Shown here: one piece after another, positions 40,442-61,685 of the stretch | How the letters are laid out: every line of letters starts with the position of its first letter | Numbering within the stretch: the first letter of the stretch is position 1 | IMG/VR virus record: IMGVR_UViG_3300021961_007031 | Source: a virus | Direction: 5' to 3' (one strand) | Length of the DNA: 64,000 bases | Translations under genes and position numbers: made by a program | The notes under the pieces: generated by a model | The model's input: the letters and a program-made list of their open reading frames with translations, nothing else | Told to the model about the DNA's origin: nothing | Databases searched by the model: none

Positions 40442-40746
40442 TGTCGGATCCAAGTCTTAAGTTTCCCAATGCAATTACAGTAAACGCCTCCAACTACACC
40501 GACAGGAAAAATCATCTTCCTGGCGAAGGTGGTGCTCTTAATGCTGGCTATACGCCCGTAGATGCATTATGTATGGTTAGCAATTTACTTGGCAGTCATG
40601 GTCTACGATATAATGTAGATTGGTGGTGGGATGGATTTGGTTACGGTGATTATACCATTAATGGTCCATCTTACACACTAAATTTAATGTTTGCTAAAGA
40701 AGAGCATCGTTTACTACTTGATTTGGGACTTAAGAATGCAGGTTAG
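40441..40746 (+). CDS. hypothetical protein
   Basis: Coupled ORF. Confidence 0.5.
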   Translation: MSDPSLKFPNAITVNASNYTDRKNHLPGEGGALNAGYTPVDALCMVSNLLGSHGLRYNVDWWWDGFGYGDYTINGPSYTLNLMFAKEEHRLLLDLGLKNAG

Positions 40747-41959
40747 TTTTATAGGGTTGGGCAAACTTGGTTTGCCATGTGCAGAGGAAATAGCAAAAAA
40801 AGGACACACTGTTCTGGGTTACGATGTAGCACCGGTAACAAGCGAACTTGTAGACATCAAAGACACATTAGCGGAAGCAATAAAGTTTTCTAAGATTGTT
40901 TTTGTTGCTGTTCCTACTCCACACGAAGCCAATTATGATGGCCGTGTACCAACGGCACATTTAGAACCCAAAGACTTCAACTACGACATTGTAAAACAAG
41001 TATTGCGTGAGTGTAATGAACTCATGTACTCTGCACAAATGATTGTGTTAATTTCTACAGTGCTTCCTGGCACAGTGCGTAGAGAATTCGTTCCATTAAT
41101 TACAAATACACGTTTTGCGTACAACCCATATCTGATCGCAATGGGCAGCGTTGCCTGGGATTTTTTAAATCCTGAGATGGTTATGATTGGCACAGAGGGT
41201 GGCGATACTACATGGGATGCACAACTACTAGTAGACTTCTACAAAACAGTTATTGATAATGATCCACGCTTTGTAGTTGGTACTTGGGACGAATGCGAAT
41301 GTATCAAAGTGTTTTACAACACATTTATCAGTACCAAAATTGGACTGGCAAATATGATACAGGATGTTGCAGTAAGGCAGGGCAATATCAATGTTGATGT
41401 GGTTACCCAGGCACTAGCAGAGTCAACTAAACGAATCATGGGCCCGCAGTATATGACTGCAGGAATGGGTGATGGTGGTGCTTGCCATCCACGGGACAAT
41501 ATTGCCCTGCGCTACATGGCACAAGAACTAGATCTAGGTTATGATTTGTTTGATGCTATAATGAATGCAAGAGAAAAGCAAGCACACAACCTTGCAAAAC
41601 ATTTAGTGGATTTAGCAAACGAAAATGAGATGGAAATCTATATACACGGCAAAGCATACAAGCCAGGTGTAGAATACATTGACGGAAGTTATAGTTTATT
41701 AATTGGACATTATGTACAAGAAATGGGCAAAAGTGTAACATACATTGATCCATTGACTGGTGATAATAACGAACCCAAGCAACCTTGTGTAGTATTGTTA
41801 GCCCATAGTGCAAGTACAACATACAAATATATGCACCAGGAAAGCAATACAGATAAATTATATTGTGTGATACCCATGGGAAGCATAGTCGTAGACCCAT
41901 GGCGCAAGTTCCAAAGTCACGCAAGCAAGGTAATACATTATGGCAATACGCGAGTCTAA
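40736..41959 (+). CDS. UDP-glucose/GDP-mannose dehydrogenase family
   Basis: GLGKLG, VAVPTP, STVLPGT, GGACHPRD, GKAYKP. Confidence 0.9.
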   Translation: MQVSFIGLGKLGLPCAEEIAKKGHTVLGYDVAPVTSELVDIKDTLAEAIKFSKIVFVAVPTPHEANYDGRVPTAHLEPKDFNYDIVKQVLRECNELMYSAQMIVLISTVLPGTVRREFVPLITNTRFAYNPYLIAMGSVAWDFLNPEMVMIGTEGGDTTWDAQLLVDFYKTVIDNDPRFVVGTWDECECIKVFYNTFISTKIGLANMIQDVAVRQGNINVDVVTQALAESTKRIMGPQYMTAGMGDGGACHPRDNIALRYMAQELDLGYDLFDAIMNAREKQAHNLAKHLVDLANENEMEIYIHGKAYKPGVEYIDGSYSLLIGHYVQEMGKSVTYIDPLTGDNNEPKQPCVVLLAHSASTTYKYMHQESNTDKLYCVIPMGSIVVDPWRKFQSHASKVIHYGNTRV

Positions 41960-42479
41960 GTGGCACATAGGCTATATAGATCCCTTTTGGGATAATGCAC
42001 ATCATATTTTAGATTATGAGTCTGAAACGTTTAACAATTCAGACGACATTATAAGTTGGATGGAAAAAGGGTATACTGCACCGTATGTAGGTGATTTATG
42101 CGACATGCGTAAACTACAAACATGGTATGCTACAGACTTAACACAAATTTTTACAAACATCTATGGCATTCAGGATGTTGGTACAAGTTTCTACAGAATG
42201 AGAACAGGCGTAGTTCTACCCCCACACCGCGATACCTACAAAAAATATCGTGAATTGTTTAATGTAGAATTACATGAAATCCAACGTATCGTAGTTTTCC
42301 TTGAAGATTGGCAATCCGGACATTACTTTGAAATAGAAGGCAAGCCGATTGTAAGTTGGAAACGAGGCGATTACATATGGTGGCGTGGTGACGCAGAACA
42401 TATGGCCGCTAATATTGGCGATCGTGACAGATACACTTTACAAATAACAGGACACGATGGATTACAACGTTTTAAATGA
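41940..42479 (+). CDS. 2OG-Fe(II) oxygenase-like protein
   Basis: PPHRD (HxD), EHMAAN, RYTLQI. Confidence 0.65.
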   Translation: MAIRESKWHIGYIDPFWDNAHHILDYESETFNNSDDIISWMEKGYTAPYVGDLCDMRKLQTWYATDLTQIFTNIYGIQDVGTSFYRMRTGVVLPPHRDTYKKYRELFNVELHEIQRIVVFLEDWQSGHYFEIEGKPIVSWKRGDYIWWRGDAEHMAANIGDRDRYTLQITGHDGLQRFK

Positions 42480-43059
42480 TTTCGAACAGGTGCTTAGTGA
42501 TTATACTGGAGCACCCTATGTTGTATTAACAGACAGTTGCACTCATGCTATTGAACTTTGTTTAAGACTTAAAAAGTGGCAGGGTCCAGTCATACTCCCT
42601 AAACGCACTTACATAAGTGTTCCTATGACCATGCACAAGTTAGGGTTGCCTATTTACTGGGACGATGAACTTGAATGGCAGCATGAATATAGAATTGCTC
42701 CTACAAACATCTGGGATAGTGCTAGAGCATTTGATAAAAACATGTATGTTCGGGGTCGTATGCAATGTTTGAGTTTTGGCTTTGATAAGCGTCTTAATAT
42801 CGGACATGGCGGTGCAATACTATTAGACAGCAGAGGCGATCACCATATCCTAAAACGCATGGCTTACGATGGAAGAGATTTAAGTATTAGTCCCTGGGAA
42901 AAACAAGGCGGATGGTACTTAGGGTTTCATTATAATATGCGATTAGAAGACGCCGCAAAGGGTATTGAAATGATGCAGAAGCCCGAGCATTTACCCAGTT
43001 TAGCCAGCCAAATTAAAACATATCCAGATTGCAGTAAAATTTCAGTTAATATTGACTAA
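42457..43059 (+). CDS. short DegT/DnrJ-family PLP aminotransferase
   Basis: DSCTHAIEL, WDSA, LSFGFDK, GGAIL, GFHYNM. Confidence 0.75.
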   Translation: MDYNVLNDFEQVLSDYTGAPYVVLTDSCTHAIELCLRLKKWQGPVILPKRTYISVPMTMHKLGLPIYWDDELEWQHEYRIAPTNIWDSARAFDKNMYVRGRMQCLSFGFDKRLNIGHGGAILLDSRGDHHILKRMAYDGRDLSISPWEKQGGWYLGFHYNMRLEDAAKGIEMMQKPEHLPSLASQIKTYPDCSKISVNID

Positions 43060-43080
43060 TCGTCTAAATAATCTTATCAT
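43052..43080 (+). promoter_or_regulatory. composite promoter of dpdA
   Basis: TTGACT-N17-TATCAT with CGTCTAAATAA (43061-43071) in the spacer. Confidence 0.7.
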
Positions 43081-43102
43081 TAGATATTAAGAAGGTAAAG
43101 AT

Positions 43103-44566
43103 ATGGCAACCAGAGTTAATCTAAGCGAAAAGAATTATGACTACGCAGTGTTTACTCCTGCACTTAGCGGCTTTTATCAGAGTTATGTAAGCAAACAACA
43201 ACAAGACCCCAATCATGTAGAACAGTCTCGTATACCTGCAAAGTTTGAAAATGGTATAGAAGGACTTAACTTTCTCAATCCAGAGCAGGGCTACTTTACA
43301 TACAATCATGTACTCTACAGTGCTGGGCATGCTGAACTAGACATGGCTAAAGCAGTGGATCGTGAAAGCATGATCCATAAGCGTGACAGAGACAATACAG
43401 TGCTTATTGGTGACAGTGGCGGATTCCAGATCAGCAAAGGCGTTTGGCAAGGCAACTGGCTAGAGCCTGAAGGGCAATGTGCTGCTACAGACAAACAGCG
43501 TGGTACAGTTTTAAACTGGTTGGAAAATACAGCAGACTACAGTATGGTACTGGATATTCCTACAAATGGTTTAAACTTTGTTGACGAAAAAACTGGTAAG
43601 CCACGCTGTGGTTTGAATGACTACGCAGAGTTCCGCGACGCTACCAAGGCAAACAATAACTACTTCTTTAAACATAGACAGGGCAAAACAAAGTTCCTAA
43701 ATGTTCTGCAGGGCAGCACATACGAGCAAGCAGATGATTGGTTTGACAATGTATGCTTGCCTATTGTAAATGAAACAAGTGGCTGGGCATTTGGTGGTGT
43801 ACAAAAAACAAACCTTAACCACAGTTTAAGAAGGTTGCTATATCTCAAAGAACTTGGATTGCTACAAAAAGCAGAATGGATTCACTTCCTAGGTACAGGT
43901 AGACTTGATCAGGGTGTGATGTATACTGCAATGCAACGGGCTATTAGGAAGTCTATAAATCCAGACCTTACAATAAGCATGGATTGTGCAAGTCCATTTA
44001 TTGCTACAGCAAACGGCCAAGTGTACACTGACAATACATTTAATAACAAGCGTATTGGTTACAACATGGTACACATGGTAGACGAAAAGGATCCCGCACA
44101 CAAAGAAGCACCCTGGCCCTGGGACGACAGTCCTATTGGTGCTAGACTTACCTGGCGTGATGTTAACTGGTATGATCCAGGCGACTTAAACAAGATTGGT
44201 AAGGAAGGCAAAACCAGTTGGGATAGTTTTGCATACTGTTTAATGATGGGACATAACATCTACAAGCATATTGACTCAGTGCAAATGGCTAACCGTCTAA
44301 TGGCACGACCCATTGGTATGAATGAATGGATACCTGATCAATATCTACAGTTCCAGGAGCTCTGTGTAGACTTGTTTGCTAGAGATTACAACAAGAGCAT
44401 GGCTGCTATTGATGCAGAACTTGACAAGCATGAAGGTTTGATTAGTAAACTAAGCCGTATTAAAAATCTTAAAAACACAAACGCATTTGACAGTTTGTTT
44501 AGTTTTGATGTTCCCACAACCAACACTGATATAGACAGTAGCCAGGAAGAGGATGATGCTAGATGA
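43103..44566 (+). CDS. dpdA: TGT-fold DNA 7-deazaguanine transglycosylase (DpdA/DpdA2-like)
   Basis: GDSGGFQ, MVLDIP, NVLQG, GWAFGG, HFLG, SMDCASP; folE, queD and queE in the window. Confidence 0.78.
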   Translation: MATRVNLSEKNYDYAVFTPALSGFYQSYVSKQQQDPNHVEQSRIPAKFENGIEGLNFLNPEQGYFTYNHVLYSAGHAELDMAKAVDRESMIHKRDRDNTVLIGDSGGFQISKGVWQGNWLEPEGQCAATDKQRGTVLNWLENTADYSMVLDIPTNGLNFVDEKTGKPRCGLNDYAEFRDATKANNNYFFKHRQGKTKFLNVLQGSTYEQADDWFDNVCLPIVNETSGWAFGGVQKTNLNHSLRRLLYLKELGLLQKAEWIHFLGTGRLDQGVMYTAMQRAIRKSINPDLTISMDCASPFIATANGQVYTDNTFNNKRIGYNMVHMVDEKDPAHKEAPWPWDDSPIGARLTWRDVNWYDPGDLNKIGKEGKTSWDSFAYCLMMGHNIYKHIDSVQMANRLMARPIGMNEWIPDQYLQFQELCVDLFARDYNKSMAAIDAELDKHEGLISKLSRIKNLKNTNAFDSLFSFDVPTTNTDIDSSQEEDDAR

Positions 44567-45633
44567 GCACCATTTATATTATATGTCTGGAACCAATTGA
44601 CCAGAGATATACTAAACAGTGGTATACAAACATTCCCAATATACTGGAACAGCGTATTCAGGAACAGGGCTTAGATTATCAGGTAGTTACTATTGAAGGT
44701 GAGACTGTGCCTGACAACACAACAGCAGGTGCGTTCCTGGACTTTGGTGCTACAAATGTTTATAAAGCAAGCCAGACTGTAACTGTTAGCAAGATGTTCA
44801 GTGCAGGAGAAATTAAGCCTGGCGACAAGTTTTTGGTTACTGATGCCTGGAACTTTATTATTACACCTATCAAATACATGAGCGATTTGCTGGACATTCC
44901 AGTAGAAATACACAGTATCTGGCATGCTGGCGCATATGATCCTAGCGACATACTGGGCTACAAAATGAACAAGCCCTGGCCCTGGGAAGCAGAGCGCAGT
45001 TGGTATCACAGTAGCGATTACAACTATTACGCCAGTGAGAACCATCGCAGGATGTTCCTCAACAACTTAAACATTCCAGAAGAGTATCATTATAAAGCAG
45101 TGCGTAGTGGACAGCCACACGAACTGATAATTGCAGATCTTGTTAAACATCAAAGCACGCCTAAACAAAATCGTGTTATGTGGCCGCACAGATACAATGC
45201 TGACAAGCAGCCAGAGATAGCAGAAGACTTGAGCACTGATTTTGACATGGTAATCACACAAAAAATGAACTTGAGTAAACCTGATTACTATGCTACAATG
45301 GGTACAAGTAAACTTATTTTTAGTTGTGCATTGCATGAAAATCTTGGCATCAGTGTCATGGAAGCGGTGCTGACTGGAGCAATACCTGTTGTGCCGGATC
45401 GTTGCAGTTACAGTGAAATGTATTTGGATGAATTTAAATATCCCAGTGAATGGACTATCAATCAGGAGAGTTACGAAAAGAACAAACATAGAGTAGTTGA
45501 GTTTATACAAGACAAACTGGACAACTATTCTAACTATCATAACCTAATTCGTGAGCAACAGAGTATTCTTGTCCAAGATTATTTGAGCTGTGACGTTATG
45601 ATGGACAGACTATTAAACACGGAAGTTCAGTGA
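44563..45633 (+). CDS. GT-B glycosyltransferase coupled to dpdA
   Basis: WHAG, WPHR..DKQPE, ENLGISVMEA..GAIPVVPDR; ATGA overlap. Confidence 0.8.
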   Translation: MSTIYIICLEPIDQRYTKQWYTNIPNILEQRIQEQGLDYQVVTIEGETVPDNTTAGAFLDFGATNVYKASQTVTVSKMFSAGEIKPGDKFLVTDAWNFIITPIKYMSDLLDIPVEIHSIWHAGAYDPSDILGYKMNKPWPWEAERSWYHSSDYNYYASENHRRMFLNNLNIPEEYHYKAVRSGQPHELIIADLVKHQSTPKQNRVMWPHRYNADKQPEIAEDLSTDFDMVITQKMNLSKPDYYATMGTSKLIFSCALHENLGISVMEAVLTGAIPVVPDRCSYSEMYLDEFKYPSEWTINQESYEKNKHRVVEFIQDKLDNYSNYHNLIREQQSILVQDYLSCDVMMDRLLNTEVQ

Positions 45634-46397
45634 TGAAATTAGCTGTCTGTGGTGATTCTTGGGCTAGTATAGATAATAATGACCCATCATCTAGTTTTTC
45701 AGAGATACTGTGTAAAGATCATGGCTGGGATTTATATAACTTAGCTCGCCCAGGAGCAAGTAATTTTGCAATTTGTTTGCAAATAGATCAGGCAGTTAAA
45801 CTTGATGCAGATTTTGTAATAATAAGCACAACTACTCCTGGACGTATTGAAGTTCCTTTAAAAGGAAAAACATATGTAAAGGAACTAATAGGCAAGAATA
45901 TACATTATCCAGACACTAGGCAACCTGCAATATCAGACATAGGCAAAGAAATGATGAAAGATCCTACTATTGCTGTAGATGTACTTGGTAATTTTGAGAC
46001 TATATGGAATGAGGACTATAAAAAAGTTTTGCCAGAGACTTTCCTAGATACTTTAAAATCTTATGTTGTGGATATGTTTGACCAGAATATAAAATTACAA
46101 TATGATACATGGATTATGAGCGATGCATGTCGTAGGTTATTGGATAAGAAAGTTCCCTTTTTAATAATAATTGATTACTTATATAATGGCTACAGTGTAG
46201 GTGATCCTTATCATGATTTTGAAGTAGATTTAAATTGGATACCGGCGAAATATTTAATACACTATGACGATTTCGCATGGCATAGGGAAACTGTTGTTGA
46301 CAATAAACACTATTACCATTATAGTTCGTCTAGTGCCCAAAAAATAGCAGATTACATATTTGCAAGAATAAACAAAGTAAAGGAACTTAGTGCATGA
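45633..46397 (+). CDS. SGNH-like protein
   Basis: VCGDSW, GASN, C-terminal YH. Confidence 0.55.
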   Translation: MKLAVCGDSWASIDNNDPSSSFSEILCKDHGWDLYNLARPGASNFAICLQIDQAVKLDADFVIISTTTPGRIEVPLKGKTYVKELIGKNIHYPDTRQPAISDIGKEMMKDPTIAVDVLGNFETIWNEDYKKVLPETFLDTLKSYVVDMFDQNIKLQYDTWIMSDACRRLLDKKVPFLIIIDYLYNGYSVGDPYHDFEVDLNWIPAKYLIHYDDFAWHRETVVDNKHYYHYSSSSAQKIADYIFARINKVKELSA

Positions 46398-47083
46398 GAA
46401 ATACTTCCGAAAAAATTATAGAACGAATAAAACAAAAAAATGGACGCTACTGGGCTGGCGACAACATAAGCCAATATCTAGAACCAGGTGACAAAGAAGC
46501 ACTTATTGACGAACTTACTGGTAAGTTTGAAAGTGTTATAGATAGTTTGGTTATCGATCGTTATACAGATCCAAATAGTCGTGATACTGGCAGACGTTTG
46601 GCCAAGATGTACATTAAAGAGATAATGAGCGGCCGGTATAATCCTAAACCCAAAGCAACTGCTTTTCCTAATCATACTGATGAACCATATGATGGCATGC
46701 TGGTTGTGCGTAGTGAACTTAAAAGCATGTGCAGCCATCATCATCAACCAGTTGCAGGTGTCGCTTATATAGGTATTATTGCCGCAGATAAACTTATTGG
46801 TTTGAGCAAGTATACACGCATAGCGCAATGGTGTGCAAGGCGTGGTACACTACAAGAAGAACTTGCCATGGATATTGCAAGAGAAATTATGAATGCCACT
46901 GGCAGCAAGAACGTCGGCGTATATATACAAGCGACGCATGGCTGTTGTGAGAACCGTGGTATCATGGCACACAGTAGTCTAACACAAACTACAGTTTTGC
47001 GTGGCAGTTTCCATAATGATCCTGCTTGCAAGAAAGAGTTTATGGACAATATTAAATTGCAACAGGAATTTGCACCAAGATGA
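46394..47083 (+). CDS. folE: GTP cyclohydrolase I
   Basis: SMCSHH, GLSKY.R, LQEEL, HGCCENRG. Confidence 0.95.
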   Translation: MRNTSEKIIERIKQKNGRYWAGDNISQYLEPGDKEALIDELTGKFESVIDSLVIDRYTDPNSRDTGRRLAKMYIKEIMSGRYNPKPKATAFPNHTDEPYDGMLVVRSELKSMCSHHHQPVAGVAYIGIIAADKLIGLSKYTRIAQWCARRGTLQEELAMDIAREIMNATGSKNVGVYIQATHGCCENRGIMAHSSLTQTTVLRGSFHNDPACKKEFMDNIKLQQEFAPR

Positions 47084-47997
47084 AATTACTATTAACTGGC
47101 AGCAGTGGGTTTATAGGTCAGGCCATAACGCCTAGACTTGAAAAAGAATACGAATTACATCATTTGCAAAGTGATTTATTAAATCATGCTGATGTAAAAG
47201 CAGAAGTTGCAAATGTAAATCCAGACCTTATTGTACATTTGGCTGCTAGGACCGAAGTAGAAAAGAGTTTTTACGAGCAAATAAGTTTTAGTGAAGTCAA
47301 TTATATTGGCACACTAAACCTTATAGAAAGTGCTAAAACACTAAAAAATCTTAAAAACTTCGTATTTGCTAGTACAATGGAAGTTTACGGATGGCAGCCT
47401 ATTAGTGATGAAATCGAACACACTGGAACATATAAAACTAGAGTAGCATTTGACGAGAATACTATACCTAACCCAAACGCTCCTTATGCAGTAGCAAAGT
47501 ATGGATGTGAAAAGTATTTAGAGTACGCACATCGTTGTTTAAATTTGCCATTTACTGCTATAAGGCAAACTAATGCATATGGCAGACACGACAACGATTT
47601 CTTTGTTACAGAAGCAATTATTAGTCGCATGTTAAAAAATCCACACGAAATTGACATGGGTTACGCTAAACCTTGGCGTAATTTTATCTATGTTGACGAT
47701 CTTATAGAAGCATGGATGACAGTCATTACAAATCCAGAAAAAGTTAACACAGGTAAAATTTTTACTATTGGTCCAGATAACGCACTTAGTATAGAAGACT
47801 ATGTAAATATAATTGGAAAAAAACTTAATTGGCATGGTCAAATAAACTGGAATAAGCGTCCTACCAGAGATGGAGAGATTTATTGGCTAAACAGTAATCA
47901 TGATCTAATTACAAAAGTGTTAGGTTGGCAACCTAAAGTGTCAATAGACGAGGGATTGGATAAAACTATAGAAATATGGAAAATCAAACTAAGTTAA
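47080..47997 (+). CDS. NAD-dependent nucleotide-sugar epimerase/dehydratase
   Basis: TGSSGFIG, HLAA, YAVAK, RNFIYVDD. Confidence 0.9.
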   Translation: MKLLLTGSSGFIGQAITPRLEKEYELHHLQSDLLNHADVKAEVANVNPDLIVHLAARTEVEKSFYEQISFSEVNYIGTLNLIESAKTLKNLKNFVFASTMEVYGWQPISDEIEHTGTYKTRVAFDENTIPNPNAPYAVAKYGCEKYLEYAHRCLNLPFTAIRQTNAYGRHDNDFFVTEAIISRMLKNPHEIDMGYAKPWRNFIYVDDLIEAWMTVITNPEKVNTGKIFTIGPDNALSIEDYVNIIGKKLNWHGQINWNKRPTRDGEIYWLNSNHDLITKVLGWQPKVSIDEGLDKTIEIWKIKLS

Positions 47998-49781
47998 ATG
48001 TTTATCTTTTCCAACCTCAATATGCAGTTGAAAGAAGAAAAGAAAACACTTATTGGTTGCCATACAGTGCAGGTTGTTTATGGACTTATGCTAACACGTT
48101 TCCTGAAGTACAGGAAAGGTACCAGTTAGCAGAGCTTGGTTTCAAGCGAGAAGATCCTCGTAACATTATTGAACGTATGAAAAAACAGCCGCCTGCTGTT
48201 TGCGGGTTTAGCTGTTATGTATGGAACGAAAAGTATTGTTTAAGCCTTGCCCAATTAGTAAAGCAAAACTTTCCAGATGTAAAAATAGTTTTTGGCGGCG
48301 CTCAAGCAAGCAATAGATTACTTGATTATCCATTTATAGACAGTGTTATCATTGCAGAAGGTGAAGAAAGTTTTGTTGACTTTTTAACTGCTGAAACTCC
48401 TAAACAGACATACAACAGACAGAGACTTACAAATTTAGAAATTCCCAGTCCCTATCTAACAGGTATATTCGATAAACTTATAGCAGAAAATCCTAACGCA
48501 CTTTGGAGTATGACATTTGAAACTAATAGGGGGTGTCCATACTCTTGTACATTTTGCGACTGGGGCGGAGTTACATACAGCAAGGTTAGACGATTAGAGT
48601 TAGACCGGATTACTAAAGATTTAGAGTGGGCAATAGGCAAGCCTATAAGTTACATTATCTGTGCAGATGCTAACTTTGGAATATTTAAAGAACGAGATTT
48701 AGAAATTGCACGTATACTAAGAAGAGTAGCTGATAGCAGTGGAGTAGAGGCTATAAATCTACAGTATGCTAAAAACAGCACAGAAATAGTTTTTCAGATA
48801 GCACAAATTATAGGAGAATATAGCAAAGGCGTTACAGTAAGTGTTCAAAGCATGCATGATGTTACCTTGGAAGCAATAAAAAGGAAAAACATGGATGTAA
48901 ACAAAATTGGAAATCTAATGGAACTCAGCAAGCAATACAATGTGGGCACCTACACTGAAGTAATACTTGGTTTGCCTGAGGAAACATTGAATAGTTGGTG
49001 TGAAGGTTTATGCAAATTACTAGAACTTGGCCAACATAACAGCATAGACATGTGGTTTGCCCAGTTACTAGAACGTAGCGAAATGGCTTCTCCTACTAGT
49101 ATAGAAAAATATAAAATTTCCCGAATTTCCAGTTCAGACTATTTTGCACTCTATAATAGCAATGACTATAAAGATATACAAGAGGAAATAGAACTTGTCA
49201 ATGGCACCAGTACTATGTCTCTAGAAGATATTGTGACTGGATACATGTACGGTTGGCTAATTATACAGTGGCACATAAGTGGCTACAGTCAACAAGTTGC
49301 AAAGACTGTAAGATATCAAAATGTTTCCTATAAAAAATATTACGATACATTGTTTAACATGGTACAGCAACATAAGATTTTTGGCAACCACTTCAAAGAA
49401 CTCAAAAGCCTTGTAACAACATATCTTAAACAAGGCAAGTTAGACATAGACGAAACTAAAAGTCATGGCCATAATATGCATTCTTTTAGTTATGAGTTTC
49501 TGTATAATAATAAACAAGCTGCCTACGACTTAGCAATAGAATGTGGAGAGCATTTTATTAATTTAACAGAATCTGATAAATTTACACAAAAACATTTTTT
49601 GTTTGACAAAGATACTAAGTATCCATTATATTGTAAAGACATTGTAATTAACCCACAACTACAAGACACCACAGATTTTGACTTTTATGCGCTTAGAAGA
49701 AAAAATCTTTTAAAAAATAATATTACCAAAAAGGAGATAACCAATGCCCATGCCAGAACGCATTACAGTACCAGCAGGTAG
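47976..49781 (+). CDS. B12-binding-domain radical SAM protein
   Basis: GFSCYVWN, FGG, GEGE-like AEGE, RGCPYSCTFC, DANFG. Confidence 0.85.
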   Translation: MENQTKLNVYLFQPQYAVERRKENTYWLPYSAGCLWTYANTFPEVQERYQLAELGFKREDPRNIIERMKKQPPAVCGFSCYVWNEKYCLSLAQLVKQNFPDVKIVFGGAQASNRLLDYPFIDSVIIAEGEESFVDFLTAETPKQTYNRQRLTNLEIPSPYLTGIFDKLIAENPNALWSMTFETNRGCPYSCTFCDWGGVTYSKVRRLELDRITKDLEWAIGKPISYIICADANFGIFKERDLEIARILRRVADSSGVEAINLQYAKNSTEIVFQIAQIIGEYSKGVTVSVQSMHDVTLEAIKRKNMDVNKIGNLMELSKQYNVGTYTEVILGLPEETLNSWCEGLCKLLELGQHNSIDMWFAQLLERSEMASPTSIEKYKISRISSSDYFALYNSNDYKDIQEEIELVNGTSTMSLEDIVTGYMYGWLIIQWHISGYSQQVAKTVRYQNVSYKKYYDTLFNMVQQHKIFGNHFKELKSLVTTYLKQGKLDIDETKSHGHNMHSFSYEFLYNNKQAAYDLAIECGEHFINLTESDKFTQKHFLFDKDTKYPLYCKDIVINPQLQDTTDFDFYALRRKNLLKNNITKKEITNAHARTHYSTSR

Positions 49782-56807: not shown

Positions 56808-57377
56808 ATGTTTACTGAATATAAAGATTGGATTACAAACGGCAAACATTCAGAGGTGCTTGGAGAACTAATTCTTAGAGCAAGATGGAAATTTGGTCAA
56901 GTAAGTGATAATGAAATTGAACCAAACTTTCCAATGTGGTTTCAAAATTTTTATGATCCACGTTCCAAAGCATGGGGCACTGACGTGCCTGAAGTTGCTA
57001 AGGAGTTAACTGAAGAATTTATGAAACTTGTTCCTGAAAATTATATTCTTGTACGGAGTATGGCAAGTGCAAATACATTTGGGTTGGATGGAGACTGGCA
57101 CACTGACTGGCCTGACCCTGATACAAGTATTACTGGCGTTTTGTATACAGACAGAAATTGGGAAAGAAATTGGGGAGGTGAAACAGTATTTGTAGATGCT
57201 GATGGTAAAATGGTCGCAAGTGAGTATGAGCCTCGTAAATTAATTACCTTTGATGGCAGCATTCCACACATCGGCAAAGGGCCGCAACGCCGTTGCAAAG
57301 AAATGCGTAGTATTCTAGCATTTCAAGCAGTGGACGGAGATGTTCTCGAAAAAAGAATGCAACTTAATCTCAAATGA
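56808..57377 (+). CDS. 2OG-Fe(II) oxygenase
   Basis: WHTD, WGGET, IPH, R. Confidence 0.8.
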   Translation: MFTEYKDWITNGKHSEVLGELILRARWKFGQVSDNEIEPNFPMWFQNFYDPRSKAWGTDVPEVAKELTEEFMKLVPENYILVRSMASANTFGLDGDWHTDWPDPDTSITGVLYTDRNWERNWGGETVFVDADGKMVASEYEPRKLITFDGSIPHIGKGPQRRCKEMRSILAFQAVDGDVLEKRMQLNLK

Positions 57378-57380
57378 ATG

Positions 57381-57409
57381 TTGACTCGTCTAAATAAGTG
57401 TAGTATTAT
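57381..57409 (+). promoter_or_regulatory. composite promoter of queD
   Basis: TTGACT-N17-TATTAT with CGTCTAAATAA (57387-57397) in the spacer. Confidence 0.75.
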
Positions 57410-57415
57410 ATTAGC

Positions 57416-57472
57416 AAGAGGTCTAAAGTGTTCGTCCCTCTATAAACATTCCGCACACTCTTATCAAGGAGT
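57416..57472 (+). ncRNA. candidate preQ1-I-like riboswitch in the queD leader
   Basis: AGAGG-U..C-CCUCU-AUAAA core; loop AGUGUU can pair with tail AACAUU; ACUCUU/AGGAGU anti-SD hairpin. Confidence 0.5.
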
Positions 57473-57479
57473 ATAAACT

Positions 57480-57950
57480 ATGGCCAAATATATTAGTACA
57501 AAAACATACAGGCATTTAGGTCCAGTTGCATACAGGCAATGGAGAGCAGACAGTCATTGCAATTTAATCCATGGCTATGCACTGAGCTTTCACTTTGAAT
57601 TTGAAACAGACGATTTAGATGCTCGTAACTGGGTGGTTGACTTTGGTGGTCTAAAGCCACTAAAGAACAACCTAGAAGACTGGTTTGATCACACACTGCT
57701 AGTAGCACAGGATGATCCGGACCGGGATACTCTGTTGGACCTAGGCAAAAAAGGACTAGCAAAAATTACGGAAGTTGAAAAGACTGGATGTGAAGGTCTA
57801 GCAGACTTCCTTTATGAGTATGTAAACACAATATTCTTACCAAGTTGGGAACCTGGCACTAGAGTTTGGTGCTGTAGGGTTGAAGTAAGAGAAACCGACT
57901 CAAATATGGCTATGCGAGTTGGACACAGAGAAGATGGAGAATTTGAATGA
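57480..57950 (+). CDS. queD: 6-carboxy-tetrahydropterin synthase QueD
   Basis: HCNLIHGY, WVVDFG, FDHTLL, GCE, VRET. Confidence 0.88.
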   Translation: MAKYISTKTYRHLGPVAYRQWRADSHCNLIHGYALSFHFEFETDDLDARNWVVDFGGLKPLKNNLEDWFDHTLLVAQDDPDRDTLLDLGKKGLAKITEVEKTGCEGLADFLYEYVNTIFLPSWEPGTRVWCCRVEVRETDSNMAMRVGHREDGEFE

Positions 57951-58237
57951 CAATGTTTAAAGGTTTTTTAAAATGGTTTTTAGGTGATAGTGAGAAAAAA
58001 GAAGTTGAGTCTGTACCACAATATCTAACAGGCAACCAAACAGTTAAGCCAAAGGCTGCACCAAAGCCCAAAGCAAAGGAAGCAGTAAAGAAGCCTGTGA
58101 TTAAAGAAGAAGAACTTAAGAAGATGACTAAAAAGCAAATTGATGACTGGGCCGCTGGCGCCGGCGTTACACTTGATCGTCGTCTTACAAAAGATAAAAT
58201 GATTGCTGAACTAAAAAAGAGTGTAACTATATCCTAA
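57947..58237 (+). CDS. hypothetical protein with a Rho-N/HeH-like C-terminus
   Basis: LKKMTKKQI..LDRRLTKDKMI. Confidence 0.5.
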   Translation: MTMFKGFLKWFLGDSEKKEVESVPQYLTGNQTVKPKAAPKPKAKEAVKKPVIKEEELKKMTKKQIDDWAAGAGVTLDRRLTKDKMIAELKKSVTIS

Positions 58238-58238
58238 C

Positions 58239-59114
58239 ATGAGTTATGTGATAACTTATCCAGGTGGTGCTTATGGTAACTTTGTAGGTTTTACTCTAAG
58301 GTGGTTAATGGGCGAGTATCCAGTGGATTTTAGACCATTTACTAGTAAAGGCAATAGCCATAGTTGGAATGCTCAAATTGTTAAATTTGATAAAGTTAGT
58401 CTAGAAAACCTTGAACCAATGCTTGGCATAGACACTTTTGCTATTCTTCACCCTAAGGGTCAAAAGGATCACAACCTTATAGAACGTTTAGAGTTACTAA
58501 CCAAATGTTACGATAAAGTTATATACATATGTCCTAGATTTGAAGACTGTATTTGGCTATTAAATAATAGACAAACAAAAATATATCCAGAAGGTTGGAT
58601 AGAGCATTTCAAAAATAAGAATGAGTTTGCAAATTTAGATTCATGGGAATCAAGTACTAAAGAAATCTGGGAAGAGCGAGAATTTCTTAGCATTTACCTA
58701 TATGATCAATTATTATCAGAAACAGAACTAGCAAATATAATAGATTATAAAAATTATGATTCTAATAAAATTAAAATCATATACATGAATGATCTTAGAG
58801 ACAATTTTTCACTAACATTTAGATATCTTTGCTCATGGTTAAATTTAGAAGTGGTGCGCTCACAACTTGAGATTGACAATCTTGAAAAAGATTGGAAAAA
58901 TAATGAAAAATTTTTATTTAAGGATAGATTGATTGAAGACTTAGTTAATGCTACAATAGATAATAAAAATTTTCCAATGGAAAATTTAACTTATGTAGAT
59001 GAAGCAATGATGCAATGGAAGTTACGCAATAAAGGTTTTGAATTGAAGTGCTATAACCTTAATAAGTGGCCCGAAACAACAAGCGAATTGAGAGATCTTA
59101 TATATGAAAATTAG
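58239..59114 (+). CDS. hypothetical protein (AT-rich)
   Basis: YPGGAYGNF N-terminus. Confidence 0.5.
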   Translation: MSYVITYPGGAYGNFVGFTLRWLMGEYPVDFRPFTSKGNSHSWNAQIVKFDKVSLENLEPMLGIDTFAILHPKGQKDHNLIERLELLTKCYDKVIYICPRFEDCIWLLNNRQTKIYPEGWIEHFKNKNEFANLDSWESSTKEIWEEREFLSIYLYDQLLSETELANIIDYKNYDSNKIKIIYMNDLRDNFSLTFRYLCSWLNLEVVRSQLEIDNLEKDWKNNEKFLFKDRLIEDLVNATIDNKNFPMENLTYVDEAMMQWKLRNKGFELKCYNLNKWPETTSELRDLIYEN

Positions 59115-59985
59115 ATACACAGAAGCATTTTACAGTGTTCAAGGTGAAGGAAGATTCGTTGGCGTTCCCAGTGTTTTCCTTCGCATGTATGGCTGCAACT
59201 TTACTTGCCCAAAGTTTGGACTTGCTAGGAACGCCGACGCTAGTGAAACAGAAACAAGACTTGACGAAATTATCTATGAAACAACCAAGGCGTTTCCTGA
59301 GAAATATGACAGTATTGACAAATTGCCGCTTATGGAAACAGGATGTGATAGTTATGCTGCTTGGCATCCAGCGTTTAAGCATCTGCAAAATGATGTAGAT
59401 CTGGACACACTTGTAGATAGACTGCTAGCCCTAACTCCTAATGGTTGTTGGACACAGGAAAACGGGCAAGATGTGCATTTGGTTATTACAGGTGGCGAAC
59501 CATTGCTTGGATGGCAAAGAGTTTATACACAATTATTTGAACACCCACGTATGAAGGACTTAAAAAATGTCACTTTCGAAACTAACACCACGCAGCCTTT
59601 GCGAGAAGATTTCAAGACTTACCTCAACAATAATCAACAACTACATGTTACATGGTCATGTTCCCCAAAACTATCGGTTAGTGGACATGATTGGAATGAT
59701 GCTGTATTGCCTAGCATTGCTCGTAGTTACTGCGATGTTAATGGTAGCTACCTGTATCTCAAGTTTGTGGTTTGTGATGATATTGACGTGGCAGAAGTTG
59801 ACAGAGCTGTTGCAGAGTACAGAGCGGCAGGAGTTACAGGCTCGGTTTACATCATGGCTGTCGGCGGGACAACAAAAAGTTACTTCGCTAACGGAAAAAG
59901 TGTCGCAGAACTTGCACTCCAAAAAGGCTACTGCTACAGCCCAAGACTCCACGTCGACGTATTCGGCAACGCCTGGGGTACCTAG
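59104..59985 (+). CDS. queE: 7-carboxy-7-deazaguanine synthase QueE
   Basis: FYSVQGEG, FLRMYGCNFTC..GCDS, ITGGEP, ETN, SPKL, PRLH. Confidence 0.92.
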   Translation: MKIRYTEAFYSVQGEGRFVGVPSVFLRMYGCNFTCPKFGLARNADASETETRLDEIIYETTKAFPEKYDSIDKLPLMETGCDSYAAWHPAFKHLQNDVDLDTLVDRLLALTPNGCWTQENGQDVHLVITGGEPLLGWQRVYTQLFEHPRMKDLKNVTFETNTTQPLREDFKTYLNNNQQLHVTWSCSPKLSVSGHDWNDAVLPSIARSYCDVNGSYLYLKFVVCDDIDVAEVDRAVAEYRAAGVTGSVYIMAVGGTTKSYFANGKSVAELALQKGYCYSPRLHVDVFGNAWGT

Positions 59986-60072
59986 TCCTGTTAATGAAAA
60001 AGGTTATCCTTCCTACGAAGCAGTTAACAATTTAAACGAAACTCTTGAAGAAAGAGCAAGGAAAGCTGGACT

Positions 60073-61125
60073 ATGACAGAGCCTGGCTCTTATTCTGGCA
60101 GAGGTATGATAGACAAGCATTTAATACCAGTACTAAATGATGTTGGGTATTATCCAGATATAATCAATATATCATCTCTCGATCCCGATAAAGAACTGCA
60201 GGATAAACAAATACTATCTGATTGTGTTTTGATAACATGTATTGATCCATGGAGATTTAACGATAGTGATGTTTTTAATCATCCAAGTTTAACAGGAAAA
60301 ACTATTATATTGCAAACACTGGGTTATACTAACACCAAGTATAACAATTTACATTATAAAATATCTTTTCCTGCTTTTTACTTTATGCGACACAAACCTG
60401 AGGTAGATGTTTTATCTACTAGAGATTTAGATTATGGCTTTAGTTGTTTAAACAATACTCTTTCTCCTGAACGCATAGTAATAGGGCATAAATTTTATTC
60501 CCATGACCTTTTGGATAAAATTATTTTTTCTCAAAATCGTACTGATTATGATGATTATATAATAGAACGGTTATCAGAGGATTCAAAAGATATATACTCA
60601 GGTGTTAATCTGCCAAATCTAGATCAATATTTAAAAATGTTACCTATATCATATGAAGAGGACACAAGTAAATATTTAAGTTTTAACAACCATAAAGAAC
60701 ACATGATTTGGGCACATGGAACAGATCATCCTGCCTGGAAAAATGCATATTGTAACATTGTTACGGAAACCACAGCAACAGAATATCCATTTTACTTAAA
60801 TCTAAATAGCCCTTTTTTTAGTGAAAAGTCACAAAAACCTTTTAGTAGCAAGCAGATTCCCTTGATAGTTGGCGCACAAGGACATTATGCTTACTTGAAA
60901 GATTTAGGATTCGAAATGATGGAAGACTTATTGCCATCCGGATATGATAATATGACTTTTTTAGAAAAAGTAGATGCAATGATATCAGTTGTTATTAAGG
61001 GCAAAGATTTTATTAAAGACTTTTATTTTGATCATTTGAAGGAAATCGAACACAACTACGATCTAGTAATGGGTGATAGTGTAGAGAATAAAATTTTAAA
61101 TAACATTAGGAGTGTATTCCAATGA
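60073..61125 (+). CDS. hypothetical glycosyltransferase-like protein
   Basis: NIVTET..SEKSQKP..QIP..G..LGFE; shares a module with 19867..21081. Confidence 0.45.
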   Translation: MTEPGSYSGRGMIDKHLIPVLNDVGYYPDIINISSLDPDKELQDKQILSDCVLITCIDPWRFNDSDVFNHPSLTGKTIILQTLGYTNTKYNNLHYKISFPAFYFMRHKPEVDVLSTRDLDYGFSCLNNTLSPERIVIGHKFYSHDLLDKIIFSQNRTDYDDYIIERLSEDSKDIYSGVNLPNLDQYLKMLPISYEEDTSKYLSFNNHKEHMIWAHGTDHPAWKNAYCNIVTETTATEYPFYLNLNSPFFSEKSQKPFSSKQIPLIVGAQGHYAYLKDLGFEMMEDLLPSGYDNMTFLEKVDAMISVVIKGKDFIKDFYFDHLKEIEHNYDLVMGDSVENKILNNIRSVFQ

Positions 61126-61685
61126 AATCAGTTTGGGTAAGACATGGCGAAAGCGAGTATAACCTAGAAAATCGTTGCACAGGTTGGCACGATCCTGATC
61201 TTACTGAACTGGGCAAGGAAGAAGCACAAAAAGCAGGTAAATATCTTTGCGAAAAATATGGTAGTATTGCAAACCTATACTCTAGTGATTTGCGTAGAAG
61301 TTTTAACACTGCTAATATAATCTCAGAGTCAACAGGTTGGAATATTACTCCACAAGTTAGCCCTGCTATACGAGAAAGAGATTTTGGTGACTGGAGTGGT
61401 AAGAAAAGGGACCAAATAAAACTATTACTTGGAGAAGATCAATTTACAAAAATACTTAAAGGGTGGAAAACTAAACCTGCAAATGGAGAAAGTTTACAAG
61501 ACACTGCCGCAAGAGTTTATGGATTTTTAAAAGAAATAGAAGATAGATCCAACGAATTACCACATGTAATTGTTTGTCATCGTAATACAATAAGAGCAGC
61601 GGCAGTAGTACTTGGCAAAGTTACGCCAGAAGAAATTAATGAGTTTGAAGTGCACACAGGAGAAATATTAGAATGGGACTTTTAG
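61122..61685 (+). CDS. histidine phosphatase (phosphoglycerate mutase family)
   Basis: VRHGES, SDLRR, ERDFG, GESL, VCH. Confidence 0.9.
   Translation: MKSVWVRHGESEYNLENRCTGWHDPDLTELGKEEAQKAGKYLCEKYGSIANLYSSDLRRSFNTANIISESTGWNITPQVSPAIRERDFGDWSGKKRDQIKLLLGEDQFTKILKGWKTKPANGESLQDTAARVYGFLKEIEDRSNELPHVIVCHRNTIRAAAVVLGKVTPEEINEFEVHTGEILEWDF

Follow-up and report, generated by a model that had tools for sequence, protein, structure and literature searches.

The DNA stretch analyzed here, 64 000 nucleotides (nt) of the IMG/VR virus record IMGVR_UViG_3300021961_007031 (hereafter, the window), carries a queD-like gene of the 7-deazaguanine pathway, and the question raised by this locus is what kind of RNA precedes that gene. 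The first-pass annotation, made from the sequence alone, took the leader for a variant preQ1-I riboswitch that turns translation of queD off. Comparison of homologous leaders indicates that the queD leader carries a conserved H-type pseudoknot, formed by the helices P1 and P2, which is linked to queD only, is absent from Rfam and overlaps a helix predicted to sequester the Shine–Dalgarno (SD) sequence or the start codon. We consider it probable, by a modest measure, that this pseudoknot is the sensor of a translational ON switch for queD-queE which responds to a small, guanine-faced ligand and, as far as the searches show, occurs only in phages.

The evidence for the fold comes from the leaders of homologous phage queD operons, 102 of which are distinct and were used for base counts; covariation was assessed by pair counts on alignments, shuffles and RNAalifold. 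In the window, AGAGG is complementary to CCUCU, with the 15-nt loop UCUAAAGUGUUCGUC between them and the tail AUAAACAUU 3' of P1 (Table 1). The core from P1 to P2 spans 43 nt (57417–57459), and the covariance model spans 50 positions. P2 consists of five covarying pairs, an invariant U·C mismatch (U57432 opposite C57454), a C-G pair and a purine–pyrimidine pair. Among 17 hand-checked leaders, 98.5% of the alignment cells pair, with double changes in 7 of the 12 pairs; none of 500 shuffles matches the observed covariation score, and a shift of one strand by a single column lowers the pairing to 36–39%. Among 31 distinct rows, covariation is seen in six of the seven P2 pairs and the middle pair of P1 is A-U in 17 and C-G in 13. 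RNAalifold recovers the identical P2.

The base counts on the 102 distinct leaders give the same picture at a larger scale. The four inner pairs of P1 are 100% paired, the GG/CC pairs being invariant and the middle pair A-U in 47 and C-G in 55 leaders, with the compensated variants GAGG/CCUC, GCGG/CCGC and CCGG/CCGG. In P2, the compensated variants include GUGU/ACAC, GACAC/GUGUC, GGCAU/AUGCC, GGCG/CGCC, GGUUU/AAGCC, GACUU/AAGUC and more; the inner variable pairs are 91–92% paired, with all four Watson–Crick types represented, and the purine–pyrimidine pair 57434/57452 occurs without exception as A-U (83 leaders) or G-C (19 leaders), the latter in leaders of the window type and the former elsewhere. 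L1 starts with A (43 leaders), U (35) or C (24); L2 is NC in 98 and NNC in four (N: 65 U, 18 A, 15 C); L3 is 10 nt long in 99. Taken alone, the window leader has a minimum free energy no better than that of shuffles (z = 0.21) and Rfam finds nothing at the gathering score, so that a claim made on this single sequence is unproven; more-than-chance structure is accepted here because the comparative evidence says yes, while the single sequence says no.

The conserved fold differs from the one drawn in the first-pass annotation, whose observation is partly confirmed and whose interpretation is partly supported. All the letters that it quoted are in place, its P1 is complementary, conserved and covarying across the leaders, and the idea of a riboswitch-like structured leader before queD agrees with the conserved pseudoknot. 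Its P2, AGUGUU with AACAUU, can be drawn in the window, but across the leaders only 66.9% of the cells pair in this manner, mostly as G·U and with one double change; the conserved partner of the loop lies further downstream (57427–57434 with 57452–57459), with 98.9% pairing in the 31 rows. Covariation in related phage queD leaders, the check that it had proposed, thus upholds P1 and the refined P2, not the proposed one. Two alternative folds that would capture the anti-SD region had also been suggested. The capture by AAGAG (57416–57420) is confined to the window, the other leader types lacking the complementarity (by eye), whereas the pairing of AGUGU (57427–57431) with the ACACU region is the conserved P2 itself. 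The proposed SD-hiding hairpin is present as well, with ACUCUU (57457–57462) pairing with AGGAGU (57467–57472) over the SD, and equivalent helices with different sequences occur in the other leader types.

The motif is widespread in related phages and tightly tied to one gene. An IMG/VR search with the QueD protein yielded 389 relatives, of which 80 loci were fetched (79–96% identity), and 52 of these share the pseudoknot motif in the 110 nt ahead of the start codon. In 27 of these protein-anchored loci, no motif is found within 3 kb, and queD there adjoins the preceding gene closely, with a minimal spacer or none (L018, L019, L028–L037, L039–L044, L048, L051, L053, L056, L058, L064, L073, L074 and L078). 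A covariance model, R1, built from 17 seed sequences with P2 as a nested helix, detects a single copy in each of 53 sources, namely, the window and 52 loci, with no second copy in the 64-kb window, and recovers type-B members (see below) from outside its seed (E of 2e-5 to 4e-3); it misses a copy with the stem CCGG/CCGG in locus L076. A 23-nt degenerate pattern drawn from L2, P1, L3 and the start of P2 matches at least 120 IMG/VR contigs of uncultured phages, and all 80 of the IMG/VR pattern loci listed are R1 matches at E < 1e-3. In all 133 phage-contig matches, and in three contigs binned into metagenome-assembled genomes (MAGs), the motif lies before queD or before one short open reading frame (ORF) that is followed by queD. 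Automated placement puts it directly before QueD in 123 of the 133; among the other ten, five precede one short ORF (58–113 amino acids) and then QueD, and five reflect mis-called starts inside the type-B hairpin, the printed leaders placing the motif directly before QueD.

Beyond phages, the pattern has 105 matches in prokaryotic genomes (596 Gb), which is close to a rough chance estimate from its information content. Among the 80 of these that were scanned, there are three full-length R1 matches, all before queD, and no clearly cellular genome with the motif. The three copies are on two contigs of the ‘Rickettsiales MED657' MAG and one contig of a Haliscomenobacter MAG, with phage-like neighbors (exonuclease, glycosyltransferases, UDP-glucose dehydrogenase), so these contigs are probably mis-binned phage DNA or prophages. 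One of the copies (R1 score of 51.8 bits) precedes a QueD that is only 43% identical to that of the window, so that the RNA appears to have persisted through deep divergence. The motif is absent from Acidovorax phage ACP17 and Xanthomonas phage X1, the sources of the nearest cultured QueD relatives, and a DNA search of cultured phages gave only two distant queD matches. As far as these searches reach, the motif is apparently phage-restricted.

Is this RNA a known one? Rfam 15 reports no family at the gathering score in the whole window. The Rfam PreQ1 model, run permissively on 171 nt of the window, gives 11.5 bits (E = 5.9; gathering score 39) in a weak alignment over 57417–57446, which covers the stem, the loop end and AUAAA; there is no PreQ1 match in short stretches of two other members (E up to 10) or in ten other loci scanned whole (E up to 1). 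The preQ1-II and preQ1-III models (RF01054, RF02680; HLout pseudoknot) have no match in the short stretches at E ≤ 10 or in the ten whole loci at E ≤ 1. Permissive Rfam scans of the window and 12 other members yield only chance-level matches, including fragments of small nucleolar and long non-coding RNAs. One of the named matches, to SBWMV2_UPD-PKl (a pseudoknot of the SBWMV2 3' untranslated region; 57457–57483, 22.4 bits, gathering score 39), falls on the SD hairpin and was set aside as a chance resemblance. Full-text searching of the literature found no description of the motif, and its architecture matches none of the five motifs, in three classes, that a 2024 review of preQ1 riboswitches covers (PMC11625349). 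The motif is therefore regarded, on comparative grounds, as a strongly supported RNA element that is absent from Rfam. It displays general hallmarks of riboswitches, namely, covarying helices, conserved unpaired bases, variable platforms and a constant link to the queD operon.

The likeness to preQ1-I (RF00522), nevertheless, goes beyond the H-type pseudoknot fold, with both helices supported by covariation here. It extends to a 5-bp P1 with a conserved closing G-C pair, an A-rich L3, the position before a que gene, predicted translational control, and an unpaired invariant C just 5' of the P1 3' strand, with U, A or C in front of it; the specificity cytosine of preQ1-I, C17, lies directly 5' of the P1 3' strand, as UC or AC (PMC11625349). 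These features, together with the weak window alignment, could be taken to mean that the leader is a diverged true preQ1-I member that binds preQ1 in the usual alpha mode, with the longer P2 and L3 as lineage-specific decoration. We regard this as very improbable: the score is far under the gathering score and other members scanned do not match at all; P2 has eight positions with an invariant U·C mismatch, compared with three to four pairs in preQ1-I, formed there by the 3' tail immediately behind the A-rich loop; L3 is 10 nt long and ends in UUC or CUC, not A; the core is 43 nt long, compared with about 34; the equivalent of U6 (the first base of L1) varies among A, U and C, and that of A30 is an invariant C; the SD lies outside the aptamer, whereas translational preQ1-I riboswitches bury SD bases in P2 (PMC11625349); the platform predicts ON; and the motif is seen in phage DNA only. 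Thus, the Infernal run against the Rfam preQ1 models did not sustain the membership proposed in the first-pass annotation and agrees with its caveat that this is not a standard preQ1-I. The element is not filed here under preQ1-I and, by analogy, may act as a purine-type junction aptamer with an altered pocket.

The direction of switching is suggested by what lies behind the aptamer, where three platform designs are found. Types A and B both hide the SD: type A, that of the window, is ACUCC/GGAGU or ACUCUU/AGGAGU, and type B is CCUAUG/CAUAGG. In type C, (U/A)G(U/C)CAUC pairs with GAUG(G/A)C(A/U), which covers the start codon and codon 2, and this helix covaries (UGUCAUC:GAUGGCA, AGUCAUC:GAUGACU, ..CAUUG:CAAUG..). 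In the type-C leaders L153, L097, L101, L136, L096 and L132, codon 2 covaries with the helix, being GCA (Ala) or ACU (Thr); the second codon of queD appears to be constrained by the RNA switch because the start-hiding helix reaches into it and covaries. In each design, the 5' arm of the sequestering helix starts inside the P2 3' strand, with 2–4 nt in common. When the P2 end is paired with the SD/AUG region, the optimal helix takes in two or more P2 bases in 85 of 96 leaders (three in the window) and reaches –5 kcal/mol or better in 87 of the 96, with a mean z of –2.1 compared with shuffled arms. The mean duplex energies are –4.8 kcal/mol for P2 and –7.3 kcal/mol for the sequestering helix; in the window, the values are –5.2 for P2, –5.8 for the sequestering helix and –4.5 for the P1 hairpin, and the SD-sequestering hairpin (57457–57472) was evaluated at –4.6 kcal/mol.

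Owing to the bases that the 5' arm of the helix has in common with the P2 3' strand, only one of the two structures, pseudoknot or sequestering helix, can form at a time, and a ligand that locks P2 should therefore turn translation ON. In the thermodynamic model, the SD is unpaired with a mean probability of 0.50, which rises to 0.77 once the aptamer bases are barred from pairing. The add adenine riboswitch and guanidine-III are translational ON switches, in which ligand binding frees the ribosome site; the queD leader resembles these in that an aptamer strand overlaps the anti-SD or anti-start sequence, and differs in that the fold and the conserved bases are unrelated, with no Rfam match.

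The translational OFF direction given in the first-pass annotation does not fit this layout. An OFF switch built on the same pseudoknot, with the corrected P2, would have a pathway product, preQ0, preQ1 or 7-carboxy-7-deazaguanine (CDG), repress queD-queE. As a rule, the preQ1 riboswitches described so far work by product feedback (PMC11625349). To block the ribosome, the bound pseudoknot would have to stack on the shortened SD hairpin or act in some other way; stacking is imaginable because the P2 end adjoins the hairpin start, and some type-C leaders keep the AUG paired in the model even with the aptamer locked. We nevertheless hold both the OFF switch and this mode of action to be improbable, given that the sequestering helix needs P2 bases in 85 of the 96 leaders, across three unrelated platform designs, that locking of the aptamer raises the modeled SD accessibility, and that the SD, unlike in translational preQ1-I, is not within P2 (it lies 7–12 nt 3' of it in the window). 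If the element is a ligand switch, we consider ON distinctly more likely than OFF.

Several points weigh against the ON-switch reading. In the leaders L083–L162, the conservation of L2 and L3 is in part imposed by the search pattern; that of L3 is also present in the protein-anchored set L001–L080. The transcript start is itself a prediction, expected a few bases 5' of P1 (57417). AUG accessibility in the crude model is unchanged on average (0.33 vs 0.35), the model ignores the tertiary energy of the pseudoknot, and P2 could in principle stack on the shortened sequestering helix and not compete with it. Two of the four pocket bases of preQ1-I are not kept. Finally, biosynthetic operons are not usually governed by ON switches, and the preQ1 review describes gene-off conformations only (PMC11625349).

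Under the favored ON-switch reading, the RNA would adopt either the pseudoknot, with the ribosome site free, or the sequestering helix, with the site blocked. The two would be about equally stable, and the sequestering helix would win without ligand; a small ligand at the P1/P2 junction would favor the pseudoknot, thereby withdrawing the anti-SD or anti-start bases, so that translation of queD-queE would be switched ON upon binding. The unpaired bases are invariant while the helices vary, and the invariant C and the invariant closing G-C pair of P1 recur as in preQ1-I, which hints at a ligand. Probably, the ligand presents a guanine-like face for pairing with C57436 and is a 7-deazapurine, a pterin (QueD substrate or product) or guanine; C57436 is a candidate for the ligand-pairing base by analogy with C17 of preQ1-I (PMC11625349). 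The binding site may be the P1/P2 junction or the U·C site. By the same analogy, a preQ1-I-like C on a G-C floor would be compatible with any guanine-faced base. A 7-deazapurine is the foremost candidate, although its chance falls somewhat short of even; a pterin appears considerably less likely, about on a par with the absence of any small ligand (a protein or other effector), and guanine or another purine is slightly less likely still. QueD converts dihydroneopterin triphosphate to 6-carboxytetrahydropterin, from which QueE leads on to 7-carboxy-7-deazaguanine. End-product feedback would be a poorer fit to an ON switch than a precursor or substrate signal, such as a pterin or a product of guanine nucleotide breakdown. 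Taken together as a new riboswitch class that is confined to large aquatic phages, senses a guanine-faced metabolite (7-deazapurine or pterin) and turns ON queD-queE, this remains a tentative proposal.

T4-like phages employ RNA operators in their leaders, so that a protein could be the effector. Like the T4 gene 32 leader pseudoknot and the RegA and gp43 operators, the element would then serve as a protein operator, or else as a timing device that needs no ligand, and a phage or host protein, not a metabolite, would choose between the pseudoknot and the sequestering helix. The invariant loop bases are equally explicable as protein contacts, an activator would make the ON logic easier to explain, and ACP17, the nearest cultured QueD relative, is annotated with a T4-type regA translational repressor gene. 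Such an operator seems to us unlikely, albeit a serious contender: the element is compact, with a junction typical of purine-type aptamers (unpaired C before the P1 3' strand, A-rich L3), it is tied to one metabolic operon down to 43% QueD identity while the neighbors differ, and no conserved candidate protein partner is seen adjoining it. The T4 gene 32 leader pseudoknot is the nucleation site of gp32 before gene 32. Both it and the queD leader element are small pseudoknots of the H type, lying at the 5' ends of T4-like phage mRNAs, with a role in translation that is proposed in the case of queD. The queD leader element, however, precedes queD and not the gene of a single-stranded DNA-binding protein, has a purine-aptamer-like junction, and is followed by a tract that forms a defined, mutually exclusive sequestering helix, compared with the unstructured A/U-rich tract that serves cooperative protein binding in the gene 32 type.

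Table 1. Features of the queD leader and its surroundings in the window, and motif copies on MAG contigs
Feature	Position	Strand	Remarks
2-Oxoglutarate oxygenase/endonuclease V-like ORF	56808–57377		Upstream neighbor of the queD leader
Spacer housing the queD leader	57378–57480		102 nt, between the ORF 56808–57377 and the queD-like gene
Sigma-70-like promoter, TTGACT-17-TATTAT	57381–57409	+	Consensus match only, 10/12
P1 5' strand, AGAGG	57417–57421	+	Partner 57437–57441
L1, UCUAA	57422–57426	+	Variable first base, then invariant C-U, then 0–6 variable bases
P2 5' strand, AGUGU-U-CG	57427–57434	+	Partner 57452–57459; covariation
L2, UC	57435–57436	+	Ends in the invariant C next to the P1 3' strand
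P1 3' strand, CCUCU	57437–57441	+	Partner 57417–57421
L3, AUAAACAUUC	57442–57451	+	10 nt, A-rich, invariant ...A.A(U/C)UC end
P2 3' strand, CG-C-ACACU	57452–57459	+	Partner 57427–57434
SD-sequestering hairpin, ACUCUU/AUCA/AGGAGU	57457–57472	+	First 3 nt (57457–57459) are the last 3 nt of P2
SD, AAGGAG	57466–57471	+	8 nt 5' of ATG, read from the sequence
queD-like gene (PTPS/6-carboxytetrahydropterin synthase family)	57480–57950	+	ATG at 57480; putative regulated gene
Remaining probable operon	57947–61685	+	orf96, orf291, QueE-like, orf350, His_Phos_1 phosphatase
QueE-like radical SAM gene	59104–59985	+	phrog_2076; N-terminal QueE TIGRFAM matches under cut-off
Histidine phosphatase (His_Phos_1)	61122–61685	+	
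Motif copy, MAG contig L237	2018–2071	–	
Motif copy, MAG contig L274	4925–4978	+	
Motif copy, MAG contig L270	1260–1309	+	

Upstream of the pseudoknot, the spacer of the putative promoter contains CGTCTAAATAA, which includes a TAAATA late-promoter-like element, and homologous leaders of the window type keep a TTGAC(A/T)-17-TACAAT site that ends 7–13 nt 5' of P1. A second sigma-70-like site (43052–43080) lies ahead of a 487-amino-acid ORF that starts at 43103; the two sites have the 11-mer CGTCTAAATAA, with its TAAATA element, in common in their 17-nt spacers.

Downstream, the queD-like product matches Pfam PF01242 (E = 8e-16) and phrog_2389 (E = 2e-41), with a score under the cut-off for TIGR03367. 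We infer that the genes from queD to the phosphatase form one operon because their starts and stops overlap or are closely spaced. Two of the products, those of orf291 (58239–59114; 291 amino acids) and orf350 (60073–61125; 350 amino acids), have no family in Pfam, PHROGs or NCBIfam and lack the QueC-type SGGxDS motif, and orf291 has no PDB-sequence match either; these are candidates for unfamiliar pathway enzymes behind the same leader.

A FolE gene (46394–47083) lies 11 kb upstream of the queD leader amid sugar-modifying enzymes. It belongs to a same-strand run (40691–49781) that encodes a UDP-sugar dehydrogenase, a short DegT-like protein, the 487-amino-acid ORF, FolE, an NAD epimerase/dehydratase and a B12-binding radical SAM protein. 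This gene run suggests a sugar-decorated or further tailored 7-deazaguanine. The 487-amino-acid ORF (43103–44566) has no Pfam, PHROG or PDB-sequence match; an ESM Atlas feature match (0.94) connects it to a viral cluster in which 17% of the members have a TGT domain. A DpdA-like identity was considered for this ORF and dropped, the ESM Atlas match being the sole lead. QueC (PF06508) and TGT (PF01702) were not found in five related long contigs, which are only 26–51% complete, so that this negative is uninformative. The related contigs are 92–181 kb long, and their CheckV completeness of 26–51% suggests genomes of about 350 kb for these phages.

Riboswitches are rare in phages, and the reported examples belong to a family that is also found in bacteria (PMC9004378). 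The glutamine riboswitch of Melnitz-like phages and pelagiphages (PMC9004378) is, like the queD leader, a riboswitch-type element in aquatic T4-like phages, but it belongs to a cellular family, whereas the queD leader motif is found beyond phages only on the three probably phage-derived MAG contigs. The present element would be a well-supported, abundant (at least 120 contigs) and apparently phage-specific class. If the ON-switch reading is true, this would be the first activating switch in the 7-deazaguanine pathway and a riboswitch class seemingly without cellular members. With a preQ1-I-like junction in which two pocket positions are changed, a different P2 and inverted logic, it would provide a test case for the evolution of pseudoknot aptamers; the compact 43-nt sensor could serve as a part for synthetic biology, and about 100 natural sequence variants are available for the design of mutants and constructs. 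In phages, 7-deazaguanine bases modify the DNA and thereby act against restriction, and a switch of this kind would show that phages control 7-deazaguanine synthesis at the RNA level.

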